From Escherichia phage DCP2, in the sequence record OR780565.1: a stretch of DNA of 64,000 nucleotides; one strand, 5' to 3'. The translations under genes were made by a program, and so were the position numbers. Under the pieces are notes generated by a model. The model was not told the origin of the DNA, made no database searches, and saw nothing but the letters and a program-made list of their open reading frames with translations. This document shows, in pieces, positions 12,522 through 51,737 of this stretch (the first letter of the stretch is position 1; the number at the start of each line of letters is the position of its first letter).

Positions 12522-12529
12522 TTTAAATC

Positions 12530-12823
12530 CTATTTAATGAATACTTTAGATGATGCCTGAGCCACAGTATCACCGCATGATATTGGATCAGCCATTTGAA
12601 CCGCTTTCTTTCCAGTGACATATACCTTAGAAGTTCTAGGTTGTGTCACTCCGCCATGTGTTTCATATGGCTTTTTAATTTCTGTATGTTCTGTAATTGG
12701 ATCACCTGCTACGAGAACAGCAATTCCTCCAGTGAATACTTTACTTTGTGTGGCATTCACAACTGTTGGAGGCCATGCTTCATGGCCAGCAGTAACACAC
12801 TTATCATAACTTAATCCTGACAT
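12530..12823 (-). CDS. 5.4: PAAR-repeat spike tip protein gp5.4
   Basis: 97-aa ORF between 5 and 6; Gly/His-rich PAAR-like composition; size matches T4 gp5.4. Confidence 0.75.
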
Positions 12824-13381
12824 CTATGACCTCTCATACACATAGCTTCTTAATTTATTAGCCCAACGACTCCAATTTCCAACTATAGTTTTTGTGTAAT
12901 TTTTAACTAGAGTTTTTCTTACTGGAGCAGGAGGATCCGTCGGTTCAGTAGTATCAGAGGATGACCTAGAATTACTGCCAGAACCTCCAGATTCACTTTG
13001 TTCTTGGTAGTCATATATTAATGTTACTTCGTAAGTGAATGTCTTCTGGAGGTTTTGAGGAGCTTTCCATAAATACAACTGAGTATCAGAATCAGTAGGA
13101 AGTTCTTCCCATGAAGCAGCAGTTTTAAATTCATCGCCTAAACGATATTTCAACGCGTCATTTCCAAATCCAAACACAGATTCATATGTTCCGTATAAGC
13201 GATTTTCTTCTACTAAAACCCCAGGAGTTTCTTCGTAACTAGTTATATTTATAGATACTAACGTTTCACCTGTTTCTAATTGAGCGGTAAAGGTGACGTC
13301 GATAGAAGAACCTTCCATGGATTCTCCTAAATCAGCGCTCATTGGAAGTATATTAGCCAATGTCAATCCTCGATCCATCAA
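12824..13381 (-). CDS. Hypothetical protein in the gene 5.1 position
   Basis: 185-aa ORF between 5 and 5.4; synteny only. Confidence 0.55.
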
Positions 13382-15080
13382 TTGTGTATTGACCAGATGA
13401 AATAGAACTCATAGATGCCATTTTTTCTGTCCAATCACCACCAACGTCCCAATCAACTGTCCCAGCAACTTTCCAAGAAAGATTTCCATTTACTGTGTTA
13501 GTTTGATTTCCTTCAACTAAAGTGGTAGCATCTCCTTTAACTGTAATGTCAGCATTACCTTCAACTACAATAGTAACATTACCTTTAACTAGGATAGTTC
13601 CATTGCCTTCAACTGTCTTAGTTTCATCGCCACGTACAAATATTGTATTGCTTCCATCTATTTGGTGAAGACGATTATCCATGTTGTAATAAATTTCTGA
13701 TCCACCGACGTTAGTCTTTTTATCACCGGCTACCAAAAAATTACCATCAGCATTTGTTATATCATACAAATTATCAACAGTTTTTCTTGTTCTTCTTCCT
13801 GACGGTGATACTTCCTCATATGTTCCAGTCGGATGAACTAATCTGTATCGTTCTTGTCCCGGGGTATCGTCAAATTCCTGAATATGACCGCTTTCAGTTT
13901 CCATTGTGTGAACATACGGATATTCACCTTTATATGAAGAAACAGGTTCTTTGAATAAAATTCTTGAATCATTCGGAATAGGAGGATCGGCCGGGTCAGA
14001 AGACTTTACTACAGTAGCAGCCATTGCTGACAAAGACCTAGCTGGCGTTTTAACTTCAATACCGTATGATTCCAAATTCCCTGTAAGAATAATCATGGTA
14101 ACACGGGATGCACGGCCTTTTGTTTGTTGATACCACAATGAATCACGACCGGCTTTATATGCTTTTTCCCAATCTCCGGCTAACATAGCAGTTAACATTG
14201 TGTTAAATTTAGCTACGCCACCAACGCCCATTTGGAATGCCATATTTTCTAACGCCATTTGACGAGAACGATTAACTGCTTTCCAAACTGGGCCAACTTT
14301 AGAATGTGATTTAATGTCACGTTGCATATCAGCCAAATCGCGTTCAAATAAAGTTACCGCTTCTTCCATTGTAATAGAACCTGGATTTCCGGTAATTTCA
14401 CGACCAACTTGTTTTGATAAAACTTTATTAATTTGAGCCATATCACGAACTGGCTGCTTTATGATAAGATGACCAATACCAATTGTCGGATATCCTTCAG
14501 TATCCCAATAAACTTTTAGTCTTAATCCTTCATCACGGCGAAGCATGTCAGCCATTGACATATTTGGATTATCATCGGTTGGAATCTCTGATAGTGGTCT
14601 ATCATCGGGATTTATTGCAGTGTCTAAGTTACTATCTTGGATAATGTTAGAAGACGAATCATATCCTACTTCTCCGCCTTGGTTTAATACATTAGTATCA
14701 TTTCCTAGACGTCTAGGATACTGTCCAGTTGGGTCAGAAAATCCTTCAAGTCTATTAGGTTTTTCGCGAACTATTCCACCATACGTGCCAAGAACAATTC
14801 CGTTAGTTTTCCATTTGTCTAAAAAATGACCATAAACTCTAGTTCCTTCTACCGGACCAGTAACGGAGCCTCCAATTCCAGACATTGCTGCAGAAGTTAT
14901 AGGTTGAATAACTGACATCCATGGTAATTTATCAGTTGGAATACCCATTACATCGCCTTGTGCTCTTTGAGGTGGATGCAGACCAACTACACGAACACGA
15001 ACACGACCTAATTTTAATGGGTCCATTCTATCTTCAACAACACCAACAAACCAATTAAGGTTATTACTTATCATTTCCAT
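13353..15080 (-). CDS. 5: Baseplate central spike gp5 with tail lysozyme domain
   Basis: 575-aa ORF; lysozyme motif LRLKVYWDTEGYPTIGIGHLI; C-terminal VxGNxT beta-helix repeats. Confidence 0.9.
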   Translation of the reverse strand: MEMISNNLNWFVGVVEDRMDPLKLGRVRVRVVGLHPPQRAQGDVMGIPTDKLPWMSVIQPITSAAMSGIGGSVTGPVEGTRVYGHFLDKWKTNGIVLGTYGGIVREKPNRLEGFSDPTGQYPRRLGNDTNVLNQGGEVGYDSSSNIIQDSNLDTAINPDDRPLSEIPTDDNPNMSMADMLRRDEGLRLKVYWDTEGYPTIGIGHLIIKQPVRDMAQINKVLSKQVGREITGNPGSITMEEAVTLFERDLADMQRDIKSHSKVGPVWKAVNRSRQMALENMAFQMGVGGVAKFNTMLTAMLAGDWEKAYKAGRDSLWYQQTKGRASRVTMIILTGNLESYGIEVKTPARSLSAMAATVVKSSDPADPPIPNDSRILFKEPVSSYKGEYPYVHTMETESGHIQEFDDTPGQERYRLVHPTGTYEEVSPSGRRTRKTVDNLYDITNADGNFLVAGDKKTNVGGSEIYYNMDNRLHQIDGSNTIFVRGDETKTVEGNGTILVKGNVTIVVEGNADITVKGDATTLVEGNQTNTVNGNLSWKVAGTVDWDVGGDWTEKMASMSSISSGQYTIDGSRIDIG

Positions 15081-15654
15081 AAGATTTCTCCATTATACGT
15101 ATAAGGTCGTTCATAAATGAATTGATGTCTGATTTTGCTATTATTTTTATTTGACGAAGTTTTTCATTTTCAAGAACAGCAGCTTCATACGTATCGACCG
15201 CAGCAAGTGCTCCTTCATATTGAGGATATTTTCTAGCTTTATCGCCTTTGTCATACCAAACATATGGATTATCATCGTATGATATTAAATTATAAAATTT
15301 TTCACCATTCTCATTCACATGATATACTATTTGGTCTCCACCTACATTTTTGTATTTTTGTATAGATGCTTGATAAGCAGCTTCTTGCGAAGTAATCCAT
15401 CCATAATACGGATCATAATTATCATTACACATCAATAAAACCCAATACAACTGTGGATTTCCATATATAGCATTTGCTAATTCTTCCGGGCGTGGTGAAC
15501 CTTTAATATAATAAGTACGTAAACGGTATCCCGCAAGAGCGCGTTTGAAATAGTCTTTATAGTTTCTAAAAATATCTGTCATAGGAATAGTCGGCGCGTT
15601 TTTATTCACCGTTTTGGCCGCATATTCAATCGGATCAAAAAATGTAAAGAGCAT
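15064..15654 (-). CDS. 53: Baseplate wedge protein gp53
   Basis: 196-aa ORF, same length as T4 gp53; immediately upstream of gene 5. Confidence 0.75.
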   Translation of the reverse strand: MLFTFFDPIEYAAKTVNKNAPTIPMTDIFRNYKDYFKRALAGYRLRTYYIKGSPRPEELANAIYGNPQLYWVLLMCNDNYDPYYGWITSQEAAYQASIQKYKNVGGDQIVYHVNENGEKFYNLISYDDNPYVWYDKGDKARKYPQYEGALAAVDTYEAAVLENEKLRQIKIIAKSDINSFMNDLIRIMEKSYGNDK

Positions 15655-15667
15655 GGGCCCTCCTGTT

Positions 15668-15675
15668 TATAAATA
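15668..15675 (+). promoter_or_regulatory. Late promoter TATAAATA for gene 4
   Basis: Exact TATAAATA about 27 nt upstream of the gene 4 ATG. Confidence 0.55.
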
Positions 15676-15682
15676 TATTATC

Positions 15683-15690
15683 TATTTATA
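15683..15690 (-). promoter_or_regulatory. Late promoter TATAAATA (minus strand) for gene 53
   Basis: tatttata on plus strand is TATAAATA on minus, about 30 nt upstream of the gene 53 start. Confidence 0.5.
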
Positions 15691-15701
15691 AGGAGAATCC
15701 A

Positions 15702-16154
15702 ATGGCATATTCTGGAAAATGGGTTCCTAAAAATATATCAAAATATAGAGGTGACCCTAAAAAAATTACGTATAGATCAAATTGGGAAAAATTCTTTTTT
15801 GAATGGTTAGATAAAAATCCAGAAATTATTGCATGGGGTAGTGAAACAGCAGTAATTCCTTATTTTTGTAATGCAGAAGGGAAAAAACGTAGATACTTCA
15901 TGGATATTTGGATGAAAGATTCTTCTGGACAAGAATTTTTTATTGAAATAAAGCCTAAAAAAGAAACACAACCACCAATTAAACCAGCACATCTAACAAC
16001 CGCAGCGAAGAAAAGATTTATGAATGAAATTTATACATATTCCGTTAATACTGACAAATGGAAAGCAGCTCAAGCTTTAGCTGAAAAGCGTGGAATAAAA
16101 TTTAGAATTTTAACAGAAGATGGATTACGAGCTCTTGGCTTTAAGGGGGCATAA
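15702..16154 (+). CDS. 4: Head completion protein gp4
   Basis: 150-aa ORF; size and position match T4 gp4. Confidence 0.75.
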
Positions 16155-16981
16155 TGGCTATTTTTCAAATAATTAATGAAAGCACTCCCCAAGTTCCAAA
16201 GGTTAAGCAATCATTAAACGAAAAGAAATGGATTCAGATAGGTCTTGAATACAAAAAGGCCAAAGCAAAAGGAATGACAGGAAAGCAATTTGCTGAAGAA
16301 AGAGGAATCAAATACTCTACGTTTACTTCGGCAATGTCAAAATATGCTTCAGGAATTAAAACAGCTGAAAAGATTCAAAATCTTGAATCAAAACCAATGA
16401 ATAAACTCAATAAGCAAGAAAGACAACTGCTTATGATAAATTCATTCAGACAAACATTGCGTGATAAAATTCGTAATGAAGGCGCAGCAATTAATAATAA
16501 AACCAGAAAGTGGTTTGCTGAAACTATTAAGCAGGTAAAAGGACATAAAGTTGTTCGCCCGCAGCCGGGACGAATATATGCTTTTGCTTATGATGCTAAA
16601 CACAAGGAAACTCTTCCTTATTGGGATAAATTTCCTTTGATAATTTACCTTGGTTTAGGTAAACATAATTTAATGTACGGATTGAACTTGCACTATATTC
16701 CACCTAAAGCTCGTCAACAGTTTCTAGAAGAGCTTTTAAAGCAATATGCAAATACACCTACTATTACTAATAAAACGAAATTGAAAATTGATTGGAGTCA
16801 AGTGAAAGGATTTAGGGGTGCAGACCAAATGATTAAGGCATATATACCTGGTAATATTATGGGTAGCCTAGTTGAAATCGCCCCGAAAGACTGGGCGAAC
16901 GTTGTGTTAATGCCACTCCAAAGCTTCTACTCCAAAGGAAAACGTTTCTCTGCAAACAAAGTTTGGAGCAATGTACGATGA
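16154..16981 (+). CDS. 2: DNA end protector protein gp2
   Basis: 275-aa basic ORF; size and position match T4 gp2. Confidence 0.75.
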
Positions 16982-17637
16982 ATTATGAAAAAATTTATAA
17001 TTCACTAATTGATAGGGCTCGCAATAGAGCCCTTACTGGATATAAAGAAAGACATCATATTATTCCGAAATGTTTAGGCGGTAGTAATGATGCTTCTAAC
17101 TTGGTTGATTTAACTCCAGAAGAGCATTATGTTGCACATCAACTATTAGTAAAAATACACCCAAATTCTTTAAAATTATCTTATGCGGCCATAAAAATGA
17201 CGGTTTCAACTAAATATGTTAGGAGAAATAATAAAGTTTATGGTTGGTTAAAAAGAAAACATGCAAATAATATTTCAAATACACAAACTGGACGAAAATA
17301 TTATAATAATGGTAAAAGATGTATAAAATTGCATGATGGAGATATAATTCCTGAGGGATTTATTTTAGGAAGAGGATGGAGTCCGACACAAGGCACAACT
17401 CATTCTAGAAAAAATGATACATTTAAAAACAAAAAGCTTCAATCTGCTTTAGCTAATAAACGGTGGGAAAAAGAAAAGAAAATAATGTTAGATAACTTTG
17501 GAGTTAGCACTATTGATGAAGCAAAGAAAATTGTTCTTGATTTTAAATCAACTTGTCATCCAAGATATTGGCGAAAGCCAACTTTAGAAAAATTTCCATT
17601 TATGACTTCTGCTCGTTTAAGAAGTCTAATAAATTAA
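16963..17637 (+). mobile_element. Free-standing HNH homing endonuclease-like gene between genes 2 and 3
   Basis: HNH motif ERHHIIPKCLGGSNDASNLVDLTPEEHYVAH; overlaps the 3' end of gene 2. Confidence 0.7.
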
Positions 17638-17743
17638 TTCTATTATCTTCCATTCTTTTCTATTGTTTGTTCTAATTGGAATTGAATGGAAGGGACTTAG
17701 ACCCATTATACCACCAACATTTATAAAGCATTATGAGGAATAT

Positions 17744-18274
17744 ATGTCACAAGCTCTGCAACAAATTTTTAACCAAGCAAATACAACTAACTTTGTAGTA
17801 TCAATACCACATAGTAATACTACATCTGCTTTTACTTTAAATGCTCAGTCAGTTCCTATTCCGGGAATTAGGATACCTGTTACTGATACCGTGACTGGGC
17901 CGTTTGGACTAGGCCGAGCACAGCGTCCAGGAGTTACATTTGAATACGACCCACTCATCGTGAGATTTATAGTTGATGAAGAGCTTAAGTCGTGGATAGG
18001 AATGTATGAATGGATGCTAGGAACTAGTAACTATCTTACAGGCGAAAATACTGCCCAAAAAACAGGTCCTGAATACATTACGCTTTACATTTTAGATAAT
18101 AGTAAAACTGAAATCGTGATGTCAATAAATTTTTATAAGCCCTGGGTTTCTGACCTGTCTGAAGTAGAATTTAGCTACACAGAAGATTCAGACCCAGCCT
18201 TAGTATGCACAGCAACGATTCCTTATACGTATTTTCAAGTAGAAAAAGATGGCAAAATTATAGCAGAAGTTTAA
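17744..18274 (+). CDS. 3: Tail completion / sheath stabiliser protein gp3
   Basis: ORF 17663-18274; internal Met gives 176 aa as T4 gp3; synteny. Confidence 0.7.
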   Translation: MSQALQQIFNQANTTNFVVSIPHSNTTSAFTLNAQSVPIPGIRIPVTDTVTGPFGLGRAQRPGVTFEYDPLIVRFIVDEELKSWIGMYEWMLGTSNYLTGENTAQKTGPEYITLYILDNSKTEIVMSINFYKPWVSDLSEVEFSYTEDSDPALVCTATIPYTYFQVEKDGKIIAEV

Positions 18275-18323
18275 TGCTTCAGTTTCATGTGTTATAATCT
18301 TAACTAAATTTGAGGAGAAACAT

Positions 18324-19048
18324 ATGAAACTAATCTTTTTAAGTGGTGTAAAGCGTAGTGGAAAAGATACTACCGCAGATTTTATCATGAATAATTATTC
18401 TGCAGTTAAATATCAACTTGCTGGTCCTATTAAAGATGCATTGGCTTATGCATGGGGTGTATTTGCAGCAAACACTGACTATCCTTGCTTAACTCGTAGA
18501 GAGTTTGAAGGAATTGACTATGATCGTGAGACTAATTTGAATTTGACTAAATTAGAAGTAATTATGATTATGGAACAAGCATTTTGCTATCTTAATGGTA
18601 AAAGCCCAATTAAAGGTGTGTTTGTTTTTGATGACGAAGGAAAAGAATCAGTTAATTTCGTAGCATTTAACAAAATTACTGACGTTATAAATAATATTGA
18701 AGATCAATGGTCAGTCCGTCGTCTGATGCAAGCCCTAGGTACGGATTTGATTGTTAATAACTTCGACCGCATGTACTGGGTAAAATTATTTGCTTTAGAT
18801 TATCTTGATAAATTTAACTCAGGTTATGATTATTATATCGTTCCTGATACCCGTCAAGATCATGAAATGGATGCGGCTAGGGCGATGGGTGCTACAGTAA
18901 TTCATGTAGTTCGTCCTGGTCAAAAATCCAATGATACACATATTACAGAAGCTGGATTGCCAATTCGTGATGGCGATTTAGTAATTACAAACGATGGTTC
19001 TCTTGAAGAACTTTTTTCTAAAATTAAAAATACACTAAAGGTACTATA

Positions 19049-19049
<1 letters not shown>
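18324..19049 (+). CDS. 1: Deoxynucleoside monophosphate kinase gp1
   Basis: 241 aa; P-loop GVKRSGKDT; N-terminus matches my recollection of T4 gp1. Confidence 0.9.
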
Positions 19050-19734
<685 letters not shown>

Positions 19735-19746
19735 TTTCACAAAGTT

Positions 19747-19776
19747 GTTTACATAGGGTTTTAGTTGTGATACTAT
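19747..19776 (+). promoter_or_regulatory. T4-type early promoter
   Basis: gtttac -35 and tgtgatactat extended -10 with about 18-nt spacing. Confidence 0.6.
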
Positions 19777-19810
19777 TACCCTATCAAAACAAAACCAAAT
19801 GGAAATCAAA

Positions 19811-20044
19811 ATGAAAACTTACCAAGAATTTATTGCTGAAACTGCTGATGTAAAAGTTGAGTTTATTTACACTGGCAAGAAAGATAAAATGGGTGAAATG
19901 CCTCATGGAGTTCTTCGTGATGCATTAGATAATTTCGGTCAACTCGCCGCAGAAGATTACGGTGATAAAATTGTTGTTACTGGTCCTGCTGCAGTTATTG
20001 AAAAATGGGCAGCAGAAAATAAATCAATTTTTCGTAAAAAATAA
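19811..20044 (+). CDS. ipI: Internal protein I-like (capsid-targeted, injected)
   Basis: N-terminal MKTYQEFIAE capsid-targeting leader; position between 57B and the tRNA region. Confidence 0.75.
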   Translation: MKTYQEFIAETADVKVEFIYTGKKDKMGEMPHGVLRDALDNFGQLAAEDYGDKIVVTGPAAVIEKWAAENKSIFRKK

Positions 20045-21701: not shown

Positions 21702-21788
21702 GCGAGAATGGTCAAATTGGTAAAGGCACAGCACTTAAAATGCTGCGGAATGATTTCCTTGTGGGTTCGAGTCCCACTTCTCGCACCA
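21702..21788 (+). tRNA. tRNA-Leu (anticodon TAA), CCA encoded
   Basis: Acceptor GCGAGAA/TTCTCGC, anticodon loop CTTAAAA, long variable arm, T-arm GGTTCGAGTCC. Confidence 0.85.
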
Positions 21789-21793
21789 AATTT

Positions 21794-21867
<74 letters not shown>

Positions 21868-21876
21868 ATTTAATTT

Positions 21877-21950
21877 ACTCCGTGTAGCTCAGTTTGGTAG
21901 AGCGCCTGATTTGGGATCAGGAGGTCCAAGGTTCAAATCCTTGTATGGAG
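21877..21950 (+). tRNA. tRNA-Pro (anticodon TGG)
   Basis: Anticodon stem-loop CCTGA-TTTGGGA-TCAGG, T-arm GGTTCAAATCC. Confidence 0.8.
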
Positions 21951-21952
21951 AC

Positions 21953-22043
21953 TGGAGGCGTGGCAGAGTGGTTTAATGCACCGGTCTTGAAAACCGGCAG
22001 TCGCTCCGGCGACTCATAGGTTCAAATCCTATCGCCTCCGCCA
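21953..22043 (+). tRNA. tRNA-Ser (anticodon TGA), CCA encoded
   Basis: Anticodon stem-loop CCGGT-CTTGAAA-ACCGG, long variable arm, T-arm GGTTCAAATCC. Confidence 0.85.
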
Positions 22044-22048
22044 GTTTT

Positions 22049-22124
22049 GCTGATTTAGCTCAGTAGGTAGAGCAACTCACTTGTAATGAGAAGGTCGGCG
22101 GTTCGATTCCGTCAATCAGCACCA
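22049..22124 (+). tRNA. tRNA-Thr (anticodon TGT), CCA encoded
   Basis: Acceptor GCTGATT/AATCAGC, anticodon loop CTTGTAA, T-arm GGTTCGATTCC. Confidence 0.85.
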
Positions 22125-22125
22125 A

Positions 22126-22200
22126 GGCCCTGTAGCTGGAAGGTTCAAGCAAGCGACTCATAATCGCCAGATGGTGGTTCAATTCCACCCAGGGCCACCA
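22126..22200 (+). tRNA. tRNA with anticodon CAT (Ile by analogy with T4, or Met), CCA encoded
   Basis: Acceptor GGCCCTG/CAGGGCC, anticodon loop CTCATAA, T-arm GGTTCAATTCC. Confidence 0.8.
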
Positions 22201-22209
22201 AATTAATTT

Positions 22210-22296
22210 GGGGAGTTATCCCGTAGAGGTAGCGGTGTGGACTGTAAATCCATTGTCATTGCGACTCGGGTGGTTCGACTCCACCACTCCCCACCA
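22210..22296 (+). tRNA. tRNA-Tyr (anticodon GTA), CCA encoded
   Basis: Acceptor GGGGAGT/ACTCCCC, anticodon loop CTGTAAA, long variable arm, T-arm GGTTCGACTCC. Confidence 0.8.
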
Positions 22297-22300
22297 ATTT

Positions 22301-22375
22301 GGATGTGTAGCTCAATGGCAGAGCGATCGCCTGTTAAGCGATTGGTTATAGGTTCGAATCCTATCACGTCCGCCA
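22301..22375 (+). tRNA. tRNA-Asn (anticodon GTT), CCA encoded
   Basis: Anticodon stem-loop TCGC-CTGTTAA-GCGA, T-arm GGTTCGAATCC. Confidence 0.85.
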
Positions 22376-22489
22376 AATTTGTGACAACTGTCACATTAAT
22401 ATCTACTTGACGCGATTATAGGGGTTGAACTGATCACTCTTCTCTTAATTTCGTGTGAAGACATCTTGATTGTTGGAGTAGGTATTAAT

Positions 22490-22565
22490 GTGGCCGTAGT
22501 TCAGTTGGTAGAACTCGAGATTGTGATTCTCGTAGTCATGGGTTCGACTCCCATCGGTCACCCCA
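22490..22565 (+). tRNA. tRNA-His (anticodon GTG), CCA encoded
   Basis: Extra 5' G pairing with discriminator C, anticodon stem-loop CGAGA-TTGTGAT-TCTCG, T-arm GGTTCGACTCC. Confidence 0.8.
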
Positions 22566-22569
22566 ATTA

Positions 22570-22645
22570 CGGGGCATAGCTCAGAAGGAAGAGCAAGGAC
22601 CTTCTAAGTCCTAGGTCGTAGGTTCGATCCCTACTGCCTCGACCA
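22570..22645 (+). tRNA. tRNA-Arg (anticodon TCT), CCA encoded
   Basis: Anticodon stem-loop GGAC-CTTCTAA-GTCC, T-arm GGTTCGATCCC. Confidence 0.85.
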
Positions 22646-28031: not shown

Positions 28032-28834
<803 letters not shown>

Positions 28835-28866: not shown

Positions 28867-28892
28867 CATTCATCAACTACTTGGAGGAAATT

Positions 28893-29309
28893 ATGACTCG
28901 TATCAATTTAACACTTGTTTCTGAACTGACCGATCAACATCTTATGGCTGAGTATCGTGAATTGCCACGTGTTTTTGGTATAGTTCGTAAGCATGTGGCA
29001 AACGGTAAGCGCGCTAAAGATTTTAAAATATCTTCTAAATTTATTTTAGGTTCTGGTCATGTTACTTTCTTTTACGATAAGTTAGAATTTTTGCGAAAGC
29101 GTCAATCGGACATTATAACGGAATGCTTAAAACGCGGGTTCAGTATAAAAGATACTGAAGTTCCTGACATCAGCGATATTCCAGTAGAATGGAAAAATGA
29201 TTATAATCCATGCAAATCAGCTATTAAGTTGAGTCAACAACGACTCGATGAAAAAATTTTAATGAAGCCACACTGGTATAAGTATTACGGCAAAAATATT
29301 TACATTTAA
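28893..29309 (+). CDS. denV: Endonuclease V (pyrimidine-dimer DNA glycosylase)
   Basis: 138 aa from [29 protein letters not shown]; matches my recollection of T4 endo V. Confidence 0.9.
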
Positions 29310-29454: not shown

Positions 29455-29994
29455 ATGAGAACATTTTTAACTGGTCCTTATCTATCCCTGATGAATGCTT
29501 TTACACACCATTCTGATGCTAGAGTAGAAGAAATTTGTAAAAACGAATATATCCCACCATTTGAAGACTTACTTAAGCAGTATTGCACACTTCGACTAGA
29601 CGGTGGACGTCAATCCGGTAAATCAACTGCTGTGACTAACTTTGCTGCTAATTGGCTGTATGACGGTGGAACAGTTATTGTTCTTTCTAATACTTCAGCT
29701 TACGCTAAAATTTCTGCAGGCCACATTAAAAAAGAATTTTCTCGTTATTCTAGTGATGATATTCGATTCCGCTTATTTACTGATTCTGTCCGTAGTTTTA
29801 TCGGTAATAAAGGAAGCAAGTTCAGAGGTTTATCTCTTTCGCGAATTTTGTATATAATCGATGAGCCTGTTAAATCTCCTGATATGGATAAAATTTACGA
29901 TATTCATATTGAAACTGTGCAACACTGCTGTAATAGTAAATGCTGCATTGGCGGTATTACTCGTCCGCAGTTTTTCGTAATTGGAATGCAATGA
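29455..29994 (+). CDS. Small P-loop NTPase-like protein
   Basis: Walker A GGRQSGKST, Walker B-like LYIIDEP; internal Met with SD gagaga. Confidence 0.5.
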   Translation: MRTFLTGPYLSLMNAFTHHSDARVEEICKNEYIPPFEDLLKQYCTLRLDGGRQSGKSTAVTNFAANWLYDGGTVIVLSNTSAYAKISAGHIKKEFSRYSSDDIRFRLFTDSVRSFIGNKGSKFRGLSLSRILYIIDEPVKSPDMDKIYDIHIETVQHCCNSKCCIGGITRPQFFVIGMQ

Positions 29995-30320
29995 TGACAG
30001 ATACGCAACTTTTCGAATATCTTTATTTTTCGCCAAAAACTATTAAAAATAAATTGGTGAATCATTTTGAAATTTTGGCAAATAACAACGTCTTGAGCGA
30101 ATTTTATCCCAAGCAATACAAATTACAAAAAGGTGTATTCAAAGGATGCAGAGTTTTGTGCACTGCTCCTAATGCAAGATTAATGAATAAAATTCCATAT
30201 TTTACCATGGAATTTATTGATGGACCATTTAAAGGATTAATTACTCAAAGTTTAATGGCATATGATTCTGAGCCATTTTTAATTAAAGAACAGTCTTGGA
30301 TAAATTTATTTTCTAATTGA
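29991..30320 (+). CDS. Hypothetical protein
   Basis: About 109-aa ORF, ATGA-coupled to the upstream gene. Confidence 0.4.
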   Translation: MMTDTQLFEYLYFSPKTIKNKLVNHFEILANNNVLSEFYPKQYKLQKGVFKGCRVLCTAPNARLMNKIPYFTMEFIDGPFKGLITQSLMAYDSEPFLIKEQSWINLFSN

Positions 30321-30326
30321 GGTTAT

Positions 30327-30689
30327 ATGAAAGCATATCAAATTCTTGAAGGCACGCATAAAGGTACTATTTATTTTGAAGATGGTATTCAAGCACGAAT
30401 TATTGTCTCTAAAACCTTTAAAGAGGACTCTTTTGTAGACCCGGAAATTTTTTACGGTTTGCATGCCCGCGAAATTGAAATTGAAACACAACCTACAGTT
30501 AAAATTGAAGGTGGTCAGCACCTGAACGTTAACGTTCTGCGTCGCGAAACTCTGGAAGATGCAGTTAAGCATCCGGAAAAATATCCGCAGCTGACCATCC
30601 GTGTATCCGGTTATGCAGTTCGCTTTAACTCTCTGACTCCGGAACAGCAGCGCGACGTTATCGCTCGTACCTTTACTGAGAGCTTGTAA
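30327..30689 (+). CDS. Autonomous glycyl-radical cofactor (GrcA/YfiD-like)
   Basis: C-terminal [29 protein letters not shown] glycyl-radical motif; 3' half has host-like GC and codon usage. Confidence 0.8.
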
Positions 30690-30910
30690 TGGCAAAGATA
30701 ATTATTGAAGGTTCTGAAGATGTGCTAAATGCTTTCGCCGAATGGTTTAGTAATTCAGGCGAACAGCAATTTAATGAAGCATGGAACATGGGTGATATTA
30801 ATGGAATTTATCCTACGACAGAAATTTCTGTTCAGGGATATGGCATTCATGAACCTATTCGTTTAGTTGAATATGATTTGGGAACAGGTGAGGAAGTAAA
30901 ATATGATTGA
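30689..30910 (+). CDS. Hypothetical protein
   Basis: 73-aa acidic ORF, coupled to neighbours. Confidence 0.4.
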   Translation: MAKIIIEGSEDVLNAFAEWFSNSGEQQFNEAWNMGDINGIYPTTEISVQGYGIHEPIRLVEYDLGTGEEVKYD

Positions 30911-31506: not shown

Positions 31507-31968
31507 ATGACTATCAACACAGAAGTTTTTATCCGTCGAAATAAGCTTCGTCGTCACTTTGAGTCGGAGTTTCGTCAAATTAACAATGAGATTCGTGAGG
31601 CATCAAAAGCAGCAGGGGTCTCATCGTTTCATCTAAAATATTCTCAGCATCTTCTTGATCGTGCAATTCAACGGGAGATTGATGAGACATATGTTTTTGA
31701 ATTATTCCATAAAATAAAAGACCATGTTTTAGAAGTTAATGAATTCCTGAGTATGCCTCCGCGTCCTGACATTGACGAGGATTTTATTGATGGGGTTGAA
31801 TATCGTCCTGGGCGTTTAGAAATCACCGATGGAAATCTTTGGCTTGGATTTACAGTTTGTAAACCTAATGCGAAGTTCAAAGACCCGTCACTTCAGTGCA
31901 GGATGGCAATTATCAATAGTCGTCGTTTACCAGGAAAGGCTTCTAAAGCAGTAATTAAAACTCAATGA
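31507..31968 (+). CDS. regB: Endoribonuclease RegB
   Basis: 153 aa, same length as T4 RegB; synteny vs-regB-vs.x. Confidence 0.8.
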   Translation: MTINTEVFIRRNKLRRHFESEFRQINNEIREASKAAGVSSFHLKYSQHLLDRAIQREIDETYVFELFHKIKDHVLEVNEFLSMPPRPDIDEDFIDGVEYRPGRLEITDGNLWLGFTVCKPNAKFKDPSLQCRMAIINSRRLPGKASKAVIKTQ

Positions 31969-31975: not shown

Positions 31976-32521
31976 ATGAGAAAAGCACTACTCGCTGGTC
32001 TATTGGCCATTTCAATGATGGCACATAGCTCCGAGCATACTTTCAGTAATGTCCAACTCGATAACATGCGTTACGCGTATCAATTCGGGGAACAATTTTC
32101 TAAGGATGGAAAATATAAAACACACAAAAACATCCATAAGAGCGGATTGGGTCATATAATGGCTGCTATTTTGTGGCAAGAAAGCTCTGCCGGAGTTAAT
32201 TTAAAATCTAAACCAAAGCATCATGCCTATGGAATGTTCCAAAATTATTTGCCAACTATGCGAGCAAGAGTTAAGGAACTTGGTTATAATATGACCGATG
32301 CCGAAATAAAAAGAATGTTGAATAAACGGTCCAATTCAGCTTCCTGGGCGTACATTGAACTTTCTTATTGGTTAAATATACATAAGGGTGATATAAGAAA
32401 AGCAATATCATCTTATAATTCGGGATGGAATGTTAAAGCAGGTTCTAAATATGCTTCTGAAGTCCTAGAAAAGGCTAATTACCTTAAAAATAATAAACTT
32501 TTGGAAATAGTAAATGACTAA
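31976..32521 (+). CDS. Secreted lytic transglycosylase-like protein
   Basis: N-terminal signal peptide; ILWQESS and YGMFQ motifs resembling SLT-family catalytic E-S and GLMQ. Confidence 0.55.
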   Translation: MRKALLAGLLAISMMAHSSEHTFSNVQLDNMRYAYQFGEQFSKDGKYKTHKNIHKSGLGHIMAAILWQESSAGVNLKSKPKHHAYGMFQNYLPTMRARVKELGYNMTDAEIKRMLNKRSNSASWAYIELSYWLNIHKGDIRKAISSYNSGWNVKAGSKYASEVLEKANYLKNNKLLEIVND

Positions 32522-44203: not shown

Positions 44204-45205
44204 ATGACTCGTAACGAATATATCAAATCATTCAATAGTGTTATTGATGATAAAGTTAAACCTATGTCTAGTCAGAATAGCGTTATTTCCATTATCAATC
44301 AATGGCTCAATAATATTGATGTAAGCATTGTTTCTTCCAGCAAATTTATTCATGAAGTTCATAAAATTTCTAGTCGCGAAGATAAAGATGATATTAAGGA
44401 AACCTTTAAAGGTTCTCGTCTTCTTTCATATTTAGTTAATCAGGATATTCTTGGTAAATTTGGGAAAGAAATTAAACGAACTAAAGATGTAGTAGGATAT
44501 AATTGGTTCGGTGATGTTAATTCTTATCATCTTAATAATAAAGAAGACCCTGAGAATATTTTTACTCGTCGTTGGATTAGTAATTTCAGACTTTTCAAAG
44601 GACAGATTCTAAAATCAGCTTCTAAATTATGTTATGGCGATTATCGTCAAATTCATCCTTTGGCTTCTGATATGATTATCATAAAAGAATATGAACTTGA
44701 TAAAAATAAAGTATCTATTTTTGTGAATTATGGATTTTTTACACCAGAAACTAACCAAAAGAATATTAATAAATTTTTCTCAATTGCTAGCACTATAACT
44801 CGTCAATTAGAGACCGCATTACTTTGTATGGAAACAGTAGAAAATATTCATACATATCCTTTTAAGAATATATGCGGTTGGGAAGGATATAAACTCGTAA
44901 TTAGCCTTCGTGAAGTGAAATGTGCTTATTCACCTACTGATAAAGAAATTTACCAACAAAAATGTGATGAAATTGTGAATACTCCTAAAGAAGAAACTAC
45001 CCTTGAGGAACTAATGGAATGTCTTGATGATTCACCTGAACCGATAGAAATTCGTCCAGAAGTTATTGCATTAGAAAAAGCTTATAAAGAAGCTCTAGAA
45101 ATTTCTAATAAAGCGCAGAAAGAATATGAACAGGCTAAAAGGATTTGGGAAGAATCTGTTAATCGCCTGGATCGTCTTGAACAAGCTTTACAGTTAATTA
45201 AGTAA
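44204..45205 (+). CDS. Hypothetical protein with C-terminal coiled coil (family member 3)
   Basis: Internal Met start with SD gaggag; C-terminal coiled coil ending LEQALQLIK. Confidence 0.45.
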   Translation: MTRNEYIKSFNSVIDDKVKPMSSQNSVISIINQWLNNIDVSIVSSSKFIHEVHKISSREDKDDIKETFKGSRLLSYLVNQDILGKFGKEIKRTKDVVGYNWFGDVNSYHLNNKEDPENIFTRRWISNFRLFKGQILKSASKLCYGDYRQIHPLASDMIIIKEYELDKNKVSIFVNYGFFTPETNQKNINKFFSIASTITRQLETALLCMETVENIHTYPFKNICGWEGYKLVISLREVKCAYSPTDKEIYQQKCDEIVNTPKEETTLEELMECLDDSPEPIEIRPEVIALEKAYKEALEISNKAQKEYEQAKRIWEESVNRLDRLEQALQLIK

Positions 45206-45257
45206 TTTAAAGCCAAGGATGGCTCGGAGTATAAATCATTAACCAAGTGAGAAGAAC

Positions 45258-46187
45258 ATGAAAACTCGTAAACATTATATTGATTATTTTGATAGTCTTA
45301 TTACTAAACACCGTAATTATCAGATTGGGCACAGAGCAGTAATCAATAATATTCTTCGTGATTTCTTTCAATATGTTGGCCAGGAAAATCATATCTGTAA
45401 AGATACTCAAAACGCTTATTCTCATTCGTTAGGCAATTTGCTTCAATGGTTTAAACGTTCTCGTCTGTTATCTTCTACTGTAGCTAGTGATAACATTAAA
45501 AACTTTATGAAGCCGAGCTTCATTAAATCTGCGACATCTATAACCGATTTGGTTGAATTTACTATTGTTAACGATGTTAAAAAGACCCATTTGGCTGATT
45601 GGTTATCTACCATTCCTGAAACTAAATTTGCTGATAAATTCGCTTGTCAATTCAATGACCAAGTGAATATGCTTTTTAAGCATGCTCGTAAACTATTTAC
45701 CGCGGGCGATGACCGTACAAATACAGTTCATGTTAAGGACTGGGTTATTGCTGATGAAGTAACACACAAGCCAGGTGGTTCATCAGTATTAATTAATATC
45801 CAGGTTCCTTATTATTACTCACGTAATCTCGGCACCATGACAGCTAGAGAAATTAATAAGCATAACAAAACTATTCGTTCGTTGTCTTATAAACTCTGCA
45901 CGATGGTGGAGATGATGGACGTAGTGGAAATGTATGACGAAACCGAAGATAATGGTTCAATGTTATACAGTTCACGCATTCTAATTAAACTGAAGAACCC
46001 TAATACATATAAGCCAGTTGTAAAAGAACCTAAAGTAGAAAAGATTGATAACTTGCGCGAAGAACGTGAATATCTCAATGCTCGTTTGATTGAAGTTGAA
46101 GTCCAGATTGCCGAACATACCAAATTGTTAAAAGCTCTTAATGCAAAAGCAAATGGTTTACGTAATGCTATTGAGGTATTGAAATGA
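45258..46187 (+). CDS. Hypothetical protein with C-terminal coiled coil (family member 4)
   Basis: 309 aa, begins MKTR; C-terminal coiled coil ending LRNAIEVLK. Confidence 0.45.
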   Translation: MKTRKHYIDYFDSLITKHRNYQIGHRAVINNILRDFFQYVGQENHICKDTQNAYSHSLGNLLQWFKRSRLLSSTVASDNIKNFMKPSFIKSATSITDLVEFTIVNDVKKTHLADWLSTIPETKFADKFACQFNDQVNMLFKHARKLFTAGDDRTNTVHVKDWVIADEVTHKPGGSSVLINIQVPYYYSRNLGTMTAREINKHNKTIRSLSYKLCTMVEMMDVVEMYDETEDNGSMLYSSRILIKLKNPNTYKPVVKEPKVEKIDNLREEREYLNARLIEVEVQIAEHTKLLKALNAKANGLRNAIEVLK

Positions 46188-46501
46188 AAAAGCGTCTATT
46201 AGAAGATATTGCAGCTTCAAGTAATTCCAGTCTAATTAAAATCATTATGGCTGGTGAAGAAGACGATCTGGAAATGCGTGGAAAGATTCATGGCTGTGAC
46301 GATCTAGACTTTAAACCTCCTGCTTGGGATGCCATTATGGTTATGGTTGAACGCCGCGAAAGGGCTTCTAAGAATGTTCCGAACTGCCCAAAATGTGGTA
46401 CTGAACAGGTCCAATTGATTAACTGGCGTAAACCAGAGCTTGAATATAAATGTCGTCATTGCAAACACCGATTTAACCGAGAAGAAAATGACCAAGCGTA
46501 A
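46184..46501 (+). CDS. Zinc-ribbon protein
   Basis: 105 aa; C-terminal CPKCG...CRHCKH motif. Confidence 0.4.
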
Positions 46502-46730
46502 AGAATATATGGAGGCTGCTGAAAAGGCAGTCCGTGAATTAGCAATAGCTTATTATAATGAACATGGTAAATTTCCTGATAGATACAGCGTGCTTAAATC
46601 TGCTTTAACTCGTTCATATAAAAATATGCTATCAGAAGTAAGTGATATTATATACAAACATAAAGAACAAACGGGCCAAAGTCTTGATTACGACGAGACT
46701 TTTAAACAAGTACTAGGAATTAAGGAATAA
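46488..46730 (+). CDS. Hypothetical protein
   Basis: About 80-aa ORF from an internal Met. Confidence 0.4.
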
Positions 46731-46731
46731 T

Positions 46732-46995
46732 ATGTTTAAAGTATATGGTTATGATAGCAACATCCACAAATGTGTGTATTGCGATAATGCAAAACGTCTT
46801 TTGACTGTGAAGAAACAGCCGTTTGAATTTATCAACATTATGCCGGAAAAAGGTGTTTTTGATGATGAGAAAATCGCTGAGCTTCTGACTAAACTGGGTC
46901 GTGATACTCAAATCGGATTGACGATGCCTCAGGTATTTGCTCCTGACGGAAGTCATATTGGTGGATTTGACCAATTGCGGGAATACTTTAAATGA
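46732..46995 (+). CDS. nrdC: Thioredoxin/glutaredoxin NrdC
   Basis: 87 aa; CVYC redox motif; matches my recollection of T4 NrdC. Confidence 0.9.
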   Translation: MFKVYGYDSNIHKCVYCDNAKRLLTVKKQPFEFINIMPEKGVFDDEKIAELLTKLGRDTQIGLTMPQVFAPDGSHIGGFDQLREYFK

Positions 46996-47207
46996 TGCTT
47001 GAAGGAACTGATTATATCCATGACTACCGCGGAAGCGCGGTATATGTAGGTGATGAGGTTGCAGTTTATTATGGATATGGAACTTTGATGACAGCAAAGG
47101 TTATTCAAATTAAAAATAATCGTGCTAAACTCGAAGTTTATTATTCTAATGGTGAAAAGTCTATTTCTAAGTGGAAATACGGCGATTGTATGGTCAAACT
47201 GGGGTAA
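46992..47207 (+). CDS. Hypothetical protein in the 49.3 position
   Basis: 71-aa ORF coupled to nrdC. Confidence 0.4.
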   Translation: MMLEGTDYIHDYRGSAVYVGDEVAVYYGYGTLMTAKVIQIKNNRAKLEVYYSNGEKSISKWKYGDCMVKLG

Positions 47208-47209
47208 AT

Positions 47210-47380
47210 ATGATTTACGATATTAATGTAGCAAGAACTCCATCAATGGTTACTATTCCAGCTGAAGAATTAGATCGTCTTCATAAAATTGAAGAACTTC
47301 TTTGGGAAATTGAATCTGATTTGCCATCAGGACTAGAATCCTGGATTGATTATGAAGAACTTAATAAGCTTCGGGGTTAA
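47210..47380 (+). CDS. Hypothetical protein in the 49.2 position
   Basis: 56-aa ORF from an internal Met. Confidence 0.35.
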   Translation: MIYDINVARTPSMVTIPAEELDRLHKIEELLWEIESDLPSGLESWIDYEELNKLRG

Positions 47381-47502
47381 ACCTTGGTGGGCGGTTAGAT
47401 GGGAAACTGTAGAGCCAGAGCCGGAAGAACCGGTTTACACTGATGAAGAAACAGTATATAATGAACCTACAATAAATGACTTAATTGATATGGAGATGGG
47501 AC

Positions 47503-47988
47503 ATGATTACAGTAGATAAGTGGTTTAGAATTAATCGTGTTGATACAGGGCTATGTAATTACTGGCCGGAACTTAGTGCAGGTACTGTCTTTAAAGTTCG
47601 TGAACTTGCAAAAGAATGCGAAGATGATATAGAACCTGATACTGGAATTATTGAAATTGAACTTTCCGACGGAAAGATTATTAACATCTATGATAAGCCA
47701 ATTACATACTGGTGTTTGTGGAATACTGAATCCGTTGAAAATGGCGAAATTGAAGAAGTTGTAGAGAGAACTAGCCAAGATGTTCAGAAGCCTAAAGCCG
47801 CTTTTCAAGGTGAACGTATTTCATACGCATTAGCTAAATTAGCTGCGCAAGAAAATAACGATGGCTATGAAGGTAACCTGATGCAAGCTGCCGCAGAGTA
47901 CATTGAATGGCTTGAAACTCAAATTTCTTTTTCTGACCAAAAGATTCGGCAATATAAGCGATTGCATCAAATGTTTTACAATACTTGA
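47503..47988 (+). CDS. pin: Probable host-protease inhibitor Pin
   Basis: 161 aa from internal Met, same length as T4 Pin; position between nrdC and 49. Confidence 0.5.
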   Translation: MITVDKWFRINRVDTGLCNYWPELSAGTVFKVRELAKECEDDIEPDTGIIEIELSDGKIINIYDKPITYWCLWNTESVENGEIEEVVERTSQDVQKPKAAFQGERISYALAKLAAQENNDGYEGNLMQAAAEYIEWLETQISFSDQKIRQYKRLHQMFYNT

Positions 47989-48199
47989 AAAAACTCAAAA
48001 TTCTTTTTCTGACAGGACATTTTAATGAAAACCGAATTGGTTTATACTGAAAAGTTAAATGGCGGTAAGGTTTGGAAACTTTTTATTAAAGGACATTCTA
48101 CGGACCCTCATATGACCACTTGCGTAGGAACCTATTCTCGTCCTACTAAAAAGATGATTCGACAGTATAAACGATTGCATCGAATGTTTTACAATACTT
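47914..48199 (+). repeat. Direct duplication of the pin 3' end flanking an inserted segment
   Basis: R1 47914-47937 vs 47989-48012; R2 47941-47986 vs 48151-48199 (about 85-95 percent identical). Confidence 0.7.
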
Positions 48200-48201
48200 A
48201 A
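48025..48201 (+). CDS. Small protein with duplicated Pin C-terminus (49.1 position)
   Basis: 58-aa ORF; C-terminal IRQYKRLHRMFYNT duplicates the Pin C-terminus. Confidence 0.4.
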   Translation: MKTELVYTEKLNGGKVWKLFIKGHSTDPHMTTCVGTYSRPTKKMIRQYKRLHRMFYNT

Positions 48202-48243
48202 AAATAATAAATACCCTTATCTATTTAAGGTAAGGGTTTTATT

Positions 48244-48717
48244 ATGTTATTGACTGGCAAATTATATAAAGAAGAAAAACAGAAATTTTATGATGCGCAA
48301 AACGGTAAATGCTTAATTTGCCAACGAGAACTAAATCCTGATGTTCAAGCTAATCATCTTGATCATGACCATGAATTAAATGGACCAAAAGCAGGAAAGG
48401 TACGTGGATTGCTTTGTAATCTATGCAATGCCGCAGAAGGTCAAATGAAGCATAAATTTAATCGTTCTGGCTTAAAGGGACAAGGTGTTGATTATCTTGA
48501 ATGGTTAGAAAATTTACTTACTTATTTAAAATCCGATTACACCCAAAATAATATTCACCCTAACTTTGTTGGAGATAAATCAAAGGAATTTTCTCGTTTA
48601 GGAAAAGAGGAAATGATGGCCGAGATGCTTCAAAGAGGATTTGAATATAATGAATCTGACACTAAAACACAATTAATAGCTTCATTTAAGAAGCAGCTTA
48701 GAAAGAGTTTAAAATGA
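48244..48717 (+). CDS. 49: Endonuclease VII (Holliday junction resolvase)
   Basis: 157 aa; MLLTGKLYKEEKQKFYDAQNGKCLICQREL... matches my recollection of T4 endo VII. Confidence 0.9.
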   Translation: MLLTGKLYKEEKQKFYDAQNGKCLICQRELNPDVQANHLDHDHELNGPKAGKVRGLLCNLCNAAEGQMKHKFNRSGLKGQGVDYLEWLENLLTYLKSDYTQNNIHPNFVGDKSKEFSRLGKEEMMAEMLQRGFEYNESDTKTQLIASFKKQLRKSLK

Positions 48718-50531: not shown

Positions 50532-50998
50532 ATTATGATAGATTTTATCCTTGCGATTTTGTGAATGGCCCTGGATGCAGGGTCGTTCTTTTCGTTACAG
50601 GTTGTTTGCATAAATGTGAAGGGTGTTATAATAAATCAACATGGAACGCTAGAAATGGCGTTCCATTCACTGGTGAAACGCTAGAACAATTAATTGAATG
50701 TTTGAATAATGATTATATAGAAGGATTAACTATAACTGGAGGAGACCCTCTTTATCCTGATAACCGAGATGTTGTTCATTGCATTGTTCAAACAGTAAAA
50801 AATCTTTATCCAAATAAAAGCATTTGGTTGTGGACAGGGTACAAGTTTGAAGATATTAAACAACTAGAAATGCTTAAATATGTTGATGTTATTATTGATG
50901 GGAAGTATGAGAAAAATCTTCCGACCAAAAAGCTGTGGCGAGGTTCAGATAATCAGCGACTTTGGTCAAATACCGATGGGGTGTGGAAACATGATTAA
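50528..50998 (+). CDS. nrdG: Anaerobic RNR activase (radical SAM)
   Basis: 156 aa; Cys cluster CLHKCEGC; ATGA-coupled to nrdD. Confidence 0.85.
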   Translation: MNYDRFYPCDFVNGPGCRVVLFVTGCLHKCEGCYNKSTWNARNGVPFTGETLEQLIECLNNDYIEGLTITGGDPLYPDNRDVVHCIVQTVKNLYPNKSIWLWTGYKFEDIKQLEMLKYVDVIIDGKYEKNLPTKKLWRGSDNQRLWSNTDGVWKHD

Positions 50999-51116
50999 AC
51001 TGAATTATATTATTGATACTATAAATGATATGATTTTTCATTTTGGTCCAGAATTTTATTCACAGTATAGTTTAGTACTTATCAATGCTTGGTTAATCAA
51101 TTAAAGGTAAAGGTAA

Positions 51117-51329: not shown

Positions 51330-51331
51330 TT

Positions 51332-51640: not shown

Positions 51641-51644
51641 GACG

Positions 51645-51668
51645 GGCCCTCTGGGCCTTTCTTTCTCA
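51645..51668 (+). terminator. Rho-independent terminator
   Basis: ggccc-tct-gggcc hairpin followed by tttctttct. Confidence 0.5.
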
Positions 51669-51737
51669 CATTCTGTATATTAACCATTCTAACTATCATT
51701 CACTTCTTATCATTCCCTAAAATAATTTTCACAAAGT

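Follow-up and report, generated by a model that had tools for sequence, protein, structure and literature searches.

The 64,000-nucleotide (nt) stretch of the Escherichia phage DCP2 genome analyzed here (hereafter, the window) contains, at positions 30327 to 30689 of the plus strand, a 120-codon open reading frame (ORF) that is the ortholog of bacteriophage T4 vs.6, whose product (Y06I) is an autonomous glycyl-radical cofactor. An internal segment of this gene is almost perfectly identical to the grcA (yfiD) gene of Escherichia coli, and phage-type sequence lies on both of its flanks. As judged from this pattern, an old, AT-rich phage homolog of grcA was very probably overwritten in frame by host DNA. 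The features on which this reading draws are as follows.

30327 to 30689, plus strand: vs.6 (Y06I) ortholog, 120 amino acids, stop codon included in the coordinates; assigned from the ORF, gene order, Pfam and Protein Data Bank (PDB) entry 6OWR
30327 to 30504, plus strand: phage-type 5′ part, codons 1 to 59 and the first base of codon 60; an AT-rich, diverged homolog of the GrcA N-terminal region
30505 to 30679, plus strand: putative host-derived conversion patch, 175 nt, in frame; residues 60 to 118, the glycyl-radical domain
30518, plus strand: sole patch mismatch to E. coli, CAA to CAG, synonymous and common to phage ZN18
30545, plus strand: site corresponding to the E. coli grcA nt 240 polymorphism (CGC/CGT); the window has C, the K-12/O157 allele
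30609 to 30611, plus strand: GGT codon for Gly95 of the RVSG95YA motif, from alignments to 6OWR and PflB
30680 to 30689, plus strand: gene end with the right junction, last 10 nt GAGCTTGTAA; phage-specific synonymous variants at 30680 and 30684

A patch of host grcA sequence within vs.6

When positions 30505 to 30689 were aligned with E. coli grcA, 182 of 185 nt were identical, and the best match was 98.4% identical in all 5,426 of the 5,426 complete E. coli genomes. The 5′ 178 nt of the gene, in contrast, exhibit only about 45% nucleotide identity to grcA. The patch proper (30505 to 30679) agrees with the K-12-type allele at 174 of 175 nt, and the residues that it encodes (60 to 118) are 100% identical to those of E. 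coli GrcA. Identity changes abruptly at both ends (30504/30505 and approximately 30679/30680), with phage-type sequence beyond each. At the left junction the window reads AAAA (30501 to 30504) where grcA reads CGCG, and identity runs from 30505 onward. The terminal bases after the right junction are clearly phage-type in Mosigvirus and Jiaodavirus (…GAGAGTCTATAA and …GAGGCACTATAA), and a search 3′ of the vs.6 stop codon for similarity to the host grcA region revealed none. The two junctions correspond to the two edges of a nucleotide block that is common to the phage and host genes (GAAGGTGG... to ...CGTACCTTTAC). Within window positions 20001 to 45000, the grcA tract is the best megablast match in every E. 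coli genome, and a megablast search of the other 39 kb (positions 1 to 20000 and 45001 to 64000) against E. coli genomes yielded zero matches.

In base composition, too, the patch resembles its donor and not the phage. Its GC content is 0.50 overall and 0.45 at third codon positions (GC3), compared with 0.345 and 0.22 for the 5′ part. As a control we used 1,332 equal-sized windows drawn from the genes of the window, which have a mean GC of 0.35 and a mean GC3 of 0.23; only 1 of the 1,332 has a GC content as high as that of the patch or higher. This lone outlier falls within 1506 to 3056 (minus strand), in the glycine-rich C-terminal part of the short tail fiber gene gp12. Its high GC content is an effect of amino acid composition and not of host DNA, and there is no E. 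coli megablast match there. Codon usage follows the same trend, in that all five leucine codons of the patch are CTG, a codon that accounts for 7% of leucine codons in the genes of the window.

The window also carries 10 tRNA genes clustered at 21702 to 22645 (plus strand), namely those for Leu-TAA, Gly-TCC, Pro-TGG, Ser-TGA, Thr-TGT, a tRNA with a CAT anticodon, Tyr, Asn, His and Arg-TCT. CTG, CCG and CGT/CGC are the predominant codons of the patch, and the cluster contains no tRNA whose anticodon is cognate to any of them. T4 has eight tRNA genes.

To express divergence we used pS, the proportion of synonymous sites that differ, and hereafter refer to the 5′ part of the gene as the head and to the remainder as the tail. 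Over 180 nt, the patch is 98.3% identical to E. coli, 96.7% to a cryptic Escherichia lineage and 91.7% to Citrobacter. The pS between the window patch and E. coli is 0.023, and phage patches in general give 0.02 to 0.07. Comparisons of the E. coli grcA tail with those of other bacteria give 0.07 (cryptic Escherichia), 0.34 (Citrobacter), 0.40 (Klebsiella pneumoniae) and 0.59 (Salmonella), and comparisons with the phage-type tails of Pseudotevenvirus, Slopekvirus and Karamvirus give 0.62 to 0.76. Because bacterial grcA tails diverge freely at synonymous sites, constraint at the protein or RNA level cannot explain the identity of the patch to grcA. Phage-type tails that encode nearly the same protein exhibit only 66 to 77% nucleotide identity to grcA. 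The identity of the patch is far beyond chance.

A first-pass annotation of the window, made by reading the sequence without database searches, had described a GrcA/YfiD-like gene whose C-terminal 60 or so residues match GrcA, with a GC-rich, host-like 3′ half beginning at about 30505 that contrasts with an AT-rich 5′ half, and had proposed a recent recombination with host grcA. Most of this description agrees with our data. The gene is the vs.6/Y06I ortholog, with a Gly_radical domain and a match to 6OWR; the last 60 residues are identical at 60 of 60 positions; the position given for the boundary proved to be exact; and both the nucleotide alignment and the composition and codon comparison that were recommended gave the expected contrast. 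Two parts need amendment. The host tract extends from 30505 to 30679 and is an internal, in-frame patch between phage sequences, not a replaced 3′ end. The tract does appear to be host-derived (98 to 99% versus about 45% nucleotide identity; pS 0.02 to 0.07), but it is not private to this phage.

Two explanations that dispense with replacement by host DNA were considered. Selection at the nucleotide level, whether for host-optimal codons that permit high expression or for an RNA element, could in principle have kept the tract, which is rich in codons preferred by E. coli (CTG, CGT, CCG and AAC). However, such selection would not reproduce a species-specific allele at 174 of 175 positions, including non-optimal choices and a segregating polymorphism, nor would it yield the K. 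pneumoniae-specific version present in Klebsiella phages. Enterobacterial grcA tails differ at 34 to 59% of synonymous sites, and constraint at the RNA level is not visible. We consider this explanation extremely unlikely, and convergent codon optimization was rejected because of the exact E. coli allele match and the Klebsiella-specific counterpart.

Alternatively, the whole gene might have been captured from E. coli, after which its 5′ half diverged rapidly while its 3′ half was kept by selection. The N-terminal half is indeed a distant GrcA homolog, as profile TIGR04365 aligns from residue 20 of the window protein and 6OWR from residue 22. However, the change in identity is a step within 4 nt (30501 to 30504) and not a gradient, synonymous sites are untouched in the tail (pS 0.02) and saturated in the head, and the head is orthologous, at 60 to 72% nucleotide identity, to those of genera that have phage-type tails. 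Furthermore, the same or nearly the same tail is written in other codons in Karamvirus, Pseudotevenvirus and others, and protein-level selection cannot hold synonymous sites. The abrupt junction, the orthologous phage heads and the pS contrast led us to reject whole-gene capture, which we regard as having next to no likelihood.

The preferred reading is in-frame overwriting of a phage homolog by host DNA. At the nucleotide level the head is 90% identical to Mosigvirus heads and 71 to 72% identical to those of Jiaodavirus and Karamvirus; across T4-like genera at large, the orthologous heads are 60 to 72% identical to it. The old phage grcA homolog would have supplied codons 1 to 59 and the last few bases, and E. 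coli chromosomal grcA would have overwritten 30505 to 30679 in frame. As read from these comparisons, the transfer was from host to phage. The reverse direction was rejected because the patch is nearest to E. coli proper and because E. coli grcA occupies its usual chromosomal context between ung and eamB. An assembly artifact was rejected as well, since more than 630 independent genomes, and metagenome contigs too, contain the patch. The exchange would have occurred by homologous (initially homeologous) recombination or gene conversion during infection, and illegitimate capture of a host gene fragment is less likely than homologous recombination into the phage homolog. Once formed, 175 nt of near-identity would ease further exchange. 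The Pseudotevenvirus tail encodes a protein 100% identical to E. coli GrcA in quite different codons. The products of phage-type and host-type tails are nearly the same, so the conversion was probably near neutral, and the patch is probably not an adaptation but a side effect of strong conservation.

Distribution of the patch and a Klebsiella counterpart

A search with E. coli grcA recovered 632 phage records at 95 to 99% identity, including T4, RB69 and many members of Tequatrovirus and Mosigvirus. Among the matches listed, all start at grcA nt 199 to 202 (the same left junction), none covers the 5′ half, and none is 100% identical over the full 185 nt, the best reaching 98.9%. Tequatrovirus phages isolated on Yersinia also carry the E. 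coli-type tail. The patch is therefore common to Tequatrovirus and Mosigvirus. The first-pass annotation had named the same compositional pattern in all T-even orthologs as an argument against recent recombination with the host. The pattern does extend throughout Tequatrovirus and Mosigvirus (632 records), but not to Karamvirus, Krischvirus, Slopekvirus, Pseudotevenvirus, T5-like or Aeromonas phages.

In a panel of 83 genes, the tails of Karamvirus, Krischvirus, Asteriusvirus, T5-like and Aeromonas phages are 66 to 80% identical to any bacterial grcA, and the GC content of head and tail is about the same in these orthologs. An AT-rich, phage-type tail has been kept in the Karamvirus, Krischvirus, T5-like and jumbo-phage orthologs. 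Among 80 IMG/VR loci, near-identity to the host was observed only in the Tequatrovirus, Mosigvirus and Jiaodavirus types.

The Klebsiella phages of the genus Jiaodavirus differ from the window in the source of their tails, which are approximately 97% identical to K. pneumoniae grcA, 92% to K. aerogenes and 88% to E. coli. Their tails have a GC content of 0.58 and their heads 0.37, and the junctions lie at the same two places as in the window gene. The K. pneumoniae-type patch is found in 106 phage records. When the Salmonella and Enterobacter grcA genes were used as controls, no phage match of at least 95% was obtained. These data point to at least two independent, host-specific conversions at the same block.

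Several other loci encountered in these searches deserve mention. The tail of phage Miro (Slopekvirus; gene nt 178 to 363) encodes a protein 100% identical to the Klebsiella-type GrcA tail (LLDAVEH), and in EC-F2 and leB (Pseudotevenvirus; same interval) the encoded tail is likewise 100% identical, but to the E. coli type (LEDAVKH). All three exhibit only 84 to 86% nucleotide identity to any host in the panel, and their tail GC content is 0.06 to 0.10 above that of the head. The Slopekvirus and Pseudotevenvirus tails may be older host conversions that are drifting toward phage composition.

Some sequences filed as viral or extrachromosomal are of another kind. The IMG/VR "viral" contig IMGVR_UViG_2706794630_000006 (L123) carries a full-length grcA that is 91% identical to a Yersinia allele, and IMG/VR contigs L164 to L174 carry pflB C-termini and not phage vs.6 homologs. 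The probable source of all these sequences is bacterial DNA that flanked a prophage or was misbinned. A 5.37-Mb K. pneumoniae "plasmid" (L175, CP125156.1) is evidently a chromosome, and the grcA gene of a K. aerogenes record (L176, LR134122.1) has a frameshift that is probably due to a homopolymer error (AAAAAA within GAAAAAATAC).

Age of the patch and evidence for repeated exchange

The window and Mosigvirus differ at a pS of 0.56 in vs.7, 0.31 to 0.34 in the vs.6 head, 0.045 to 0.068 in the patch and 0.65 in vs.5. Across 18 pairs, the difference between head and patch gave Fisher p values from 1e-5 to 0.04. By this measure, the patch is far more recent than the divergence of Tequatrovirus and Mosigvirus.

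The patch also carries a polymorphism that segregates in the host. Position 30545 corresponds to nt 240 of E. coli grcA, a common synonymous C/T site at which K-12 and O157 have C and strain SK1144 has T; about 5 of 11 grcA matches sampled down the ranking have T. Among the phages, C is present in the window and ZN18, and T, the SK1144-type state, in T4, in three metagenomic Tequatrovirus contigs and in two of three Mosigvirus sequences (mogra and contig L100), the third (contig L099) having G. Across the core, two phage contigs (L097 and L100) match the SK1144 allele with 100% identity.

In Jiaodavirus, variation is concentrated on the host-derived side of the gene. Five phages (L005 and L178 to L181) have heads that are 97 to 100% identical and tails that are only 92 to 99% identical. 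KP179 and Roth19, for example, exhibit 0 of 177 differences in the head and 9 of 171 in the tail (p = 0.0015). All four gametes occur in 8 of 21 informative site pairs of the tails. The tail of phage 15882-3-3 has an internal junction, as it is 100% K. pneumoniae type over its first 114 nt but not thereafter.

These Jiaodavirus and allele patterns fit repeated conversion, although they are suggestive only. We propose, tentatively and with somewhat less than even confidence, that the 175-nt block is a standing recombination target at which copying from the chromosome of the current host, by strictly lytic T-even phages with modified cytosine, is repeated, continuing and self-reinforcing. A near-uniform pool of E. 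coli alleles would homogenize phage tails, and a diverse Klebsiella pool would diversify them. Junctions that lie exactly at the limits of phage–host homology in both host types are what many overlapping patches would produce. If this proposal is correct, the tract records the recent host species and even the allele (K-12-type, SK1144-type or K. pneumoniae), and it demonstrates directly from nature that phages of the T4 type recombine with the host chromosome despite destroying it. The first conversion would then supply the homology through which later ones become frequent.

About equally likely is a history in which one E. coli conversion took place in a single ancestor and the patch, perhaps together with the entire gene, then passed through Tequatrovirus and Mosigvirus by recombination between phages, with no ongoing exchange with hosts, the Klebsiella patch being one further isolated event. 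The identical left junction across the 632 records (among the matches listed), the lack among them of any record 100% identical to grcA over 185 nt (best 98.9%) and the E. coli-type tail of the Yersinia-isolated Tequatrovirus phages would all agree with such a history. So would the head pS between genera of 0.33, compared with 0.56 to 0.65 for flanking genes, as if the gene had moved between phages. However, the tail pS between genera (0 to 0.09) is still approximately 5-fold lower than that of the head, both nt 240 alleles occur among phages, some of whose cores are identical to an extant allele, and the Jiaodavirus tails are mosaic and more variable than the heads. In addition, two independent events have their junctions where the shared homology ends, as many overlapping patches would give.

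Several points weigh against parts of the preferred account, host overwriting, or against repeated exchange. The vs.6 head (30327 to 30503, compared with L004, L099 and L100) is less diverged between genera than the flanking genes are, and the whole gene may have moved between Tequatrovirus and Mosigvirus after their split. The left junction shared by these genera could reflect a single event followed by spread between phages, and the C/T site common to phages and E. coli alleles could be a recurrent transition. The odd 3′ block of some Jiaodavirus tails has no match above 95% in the 83-gene bacterial grcA panel, and exact-pattern scans of metagenome contigs for this block gave zero matches. 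The mechanism of recombination is read from the sequence pattern. T-even phages degrade cytosine-containing host DNA, and recombination between host and phage must therefore be rare. With regard to the protein, the NCBIfam equivalog model TIGR04365 gives the window product 154.6 bits, which is under the cutoff of 170 (E. coli GrcA scores 234). This shortfall arises because the N-terminal half has diverged, and by the TIGR04365 criterion Vs.6 is a phage subfamily rather than a strict GrcA equivalog. Its function, moreover, is one predicted from T4 Y06I, from which it differs at two residues.

Phages are already known to carry metabolic genes derived from their hosts. Intragenic host–phage recombination in the cyanophage genes psbA and psbD was reportedly described by Zeidner in 2005 and by Sullivan in 2006. 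That system resembles vs.6 in that lytic T4-like phages carry a host metabolic gene with host-exchanged patches of host-like composition. In contrast, the vs.6 patch is nearly identical (98 to 99%) to the sequence of one particular host species, and its fixed edges coincide with the limits of a conserved domain. The phages that carry it have modified cytosine and destroy host DNA, and it recurs in a sister genus with another host species. We found no description in the literature of a sharply bounded E. coli patch in T4-type vs.6, nor of the K. pneumoniae counterpart in Jiaodavirus or of signs of repeated exchange, although older papers, including older T4 papers, may mention them.

The value of the finding lies in this evolutionary pattern, and no new system is revealed. 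The T4 genome holds a 175-base, near-perfect copy of host chromosomal sequence, and a Klebsiella sister genus holds a Klebsiella version, which indicates that in nature virulent phages recombine homologously with the host and exchange sequence with it, even though they degrade its DNA. This would surprise some T4 specialists, since these phages destroy host DNA. For T4-like phages, the patch could serve as a simple natural marker of past hosts, and vs.6/grcA offers a ready-made assay locus for host-to-phage recombination. It also calls for caution in annotation and in contamination filtering, as the tract is real phage DNA that is bacterial in appearance.

The Vs.6 protein, its likely client and its locus

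The window Vs.6 protein contains the Pfam Gly_radical domain (PF01228) at residues 60 to 101 (E = 2e-18; 67 bits, cutoff 22.2), with the RVSGYA motif at residues 92 to 97, and it is a small stand-alone protein. Homology to E. coli YfiD (PDB 6OWR) extends over essentially the whole length, with residues 22 to 120 aligned to residues 28 to 127 of the chain (E = 4.6e-42). The C-terminus of PflB (PDB 1H16, residues 697 to 759) was aligned at E = 5e-26. In the numbering of PMC12338860, Gly95 corresponds to Gly102 of E. coli GrcA, which bears the radical, and to Gly734 of PflB.

Relative to E. coli GrcA, then, the window protein shares the C-terminal 60 residues (174 of 175 nt in the patch), the RVSGYA motif and the small stand-alone form, whereas its N-terminal half is only about 30% identical and 7 residues shorter. 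The window gene resides in an early-gene cluster of a lytic phage, unlike E. coli grcA, which lies between ung and eamB. PflB resembles Vs.6 in the fold element and motif of its C-terminal glycyl-radical domain, the part that is replaced by the spare part after cleavage by oxygen (PMC8683613). The phage protein does not have the approximately 700-residue catalytic barrel of PflB and would work only in complex with damaged PflB.

T4 Y06I restores oxygen-cleaved pyruvate formate-lyase (PFL) in vitro (Wagner et al. 2001, as cited in PMC8683613; see also PMC12338860), and its radical is installed by PFL activase (PMC8683613). Because the window protein is identical to T4 Vs.6 (NP_049730) at 118 of 120 residues, it is predicted to have the same function. 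Host activase PflA would put a radical on Gly95, and the radical-bearing Vs.6 would then dock on host PFL that had been shorn of its radical domain by oxygen. By replacing the cleaved C-terminal domain, it would bring PFL activity back and sustain the supply of fermentative acetyl-CoA and ATP in an infected cell that is unable to make GrcA. An infection of the T4 type shuts off host genes, and we infer this to be the reason for carrying a phage copy. Both the gene and its family have been described before, as has the biochemical activity, so nothing new on protein function is claimed here.

The first-pass annotation had suggested the anaerobic ribonucleotide reductase of the phage itself (NrdD with NrdG) as a possible client, such that Vs.6 would be a spare glycyl-radical domain for NrdD (48714 to 50531). 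NrdD and NrdG are intact in the window, a grcA-like gene directly follows nrdG in Aeromonas phage ZPAH1, and a comparative paper from 2006 speculated on a role in nucleotide metabolism (PMC1524935). However, a BLASTP comparison of Vs.6 with the window NrdD revealed no detectable similarity (best E = 11), and no NrdD or class III reductase chain is present among 33 PDB matches at E ≤ 0.001. The tail is instead identical to host GrcA and closely matches PflB 697 to 759, and the rescue described in PMC8683613 is that of PFL, activated by PFL activase. We therefore consider NrdD a very unlikely client.

The grcA-like gene of ZPAH1 (L010, 256 to 642) is located directly between nrdG and a thioredoxin gene, a context unlike that of T4-type phages, and its product has a 9-residue C-terminal extension.

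Orthology to vs.6 was assigned because the gene order from denV to vs.1 matches that of T4. The order denV, vs.8, vs.7, vs.6, vs.5, vs.4, vs.3, regB and vs.1 is the same in the window, ZN18 and T4, and the window is a segment of a T4-type (Tequatrovirus) genome. At the nucleotide level, vs.6 is 99.2% identical to that of Yersinia phage ZN18 and 96% identical to that of T4. The T4 gene shares with the window its position between vs.7 and vs.5, its length of 363 nt, the same E. coli-type patch and the same junctions; it differs by two residues (T54P and R73H in T4), by the other E. coli allele at 30545 and by the synonymous change at 30518, which is on the window side. The Jiaodavirus gene (KP17, JD18, Nispero and others) likewise agrees in identity, length, junction positions and the possession of a patch that appears host-derived, but that patch resembles K. 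pneumoniae grcA and its tails are mosaic. National Center for Biotechnology Information (NCBI) naming of T4 vs.6 is already "GrcA." The neighboring features are as follows.

28068 to 28556, plus strand: lysozyme gene e
28881 to 29309, plus strand: denV
between denV and vs.7, plus strand: vs.8
29991 to 30320, plus strand: vs.7, directly upstream of vs.6
30319 to 30322, plus strand: Shine-Dalgarno-like GAGG, 4 nt 5′ of the vs.6 ATG and overlapping the vs.7 stop codon; read from the sequence
30689 to 30910, plus strand: vs.5, whose ATG is overlapped by the TAA stop codon of vs.6 (30689)
between vs.5 and regB, plus strand: vs.4 and vs.3
31507 to 31968, plus strand: regB
31976 to 32521, plus strand: vs.1

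A promoter and terminator scan around vs.6 gave counts no higher than those for shuffled sequence and was not used. Between e and denV, T4 carries ipIII and ipII, and the window has a single ORF of approximately 94 to 98 amino acids (28538 to 28834, plus strand).

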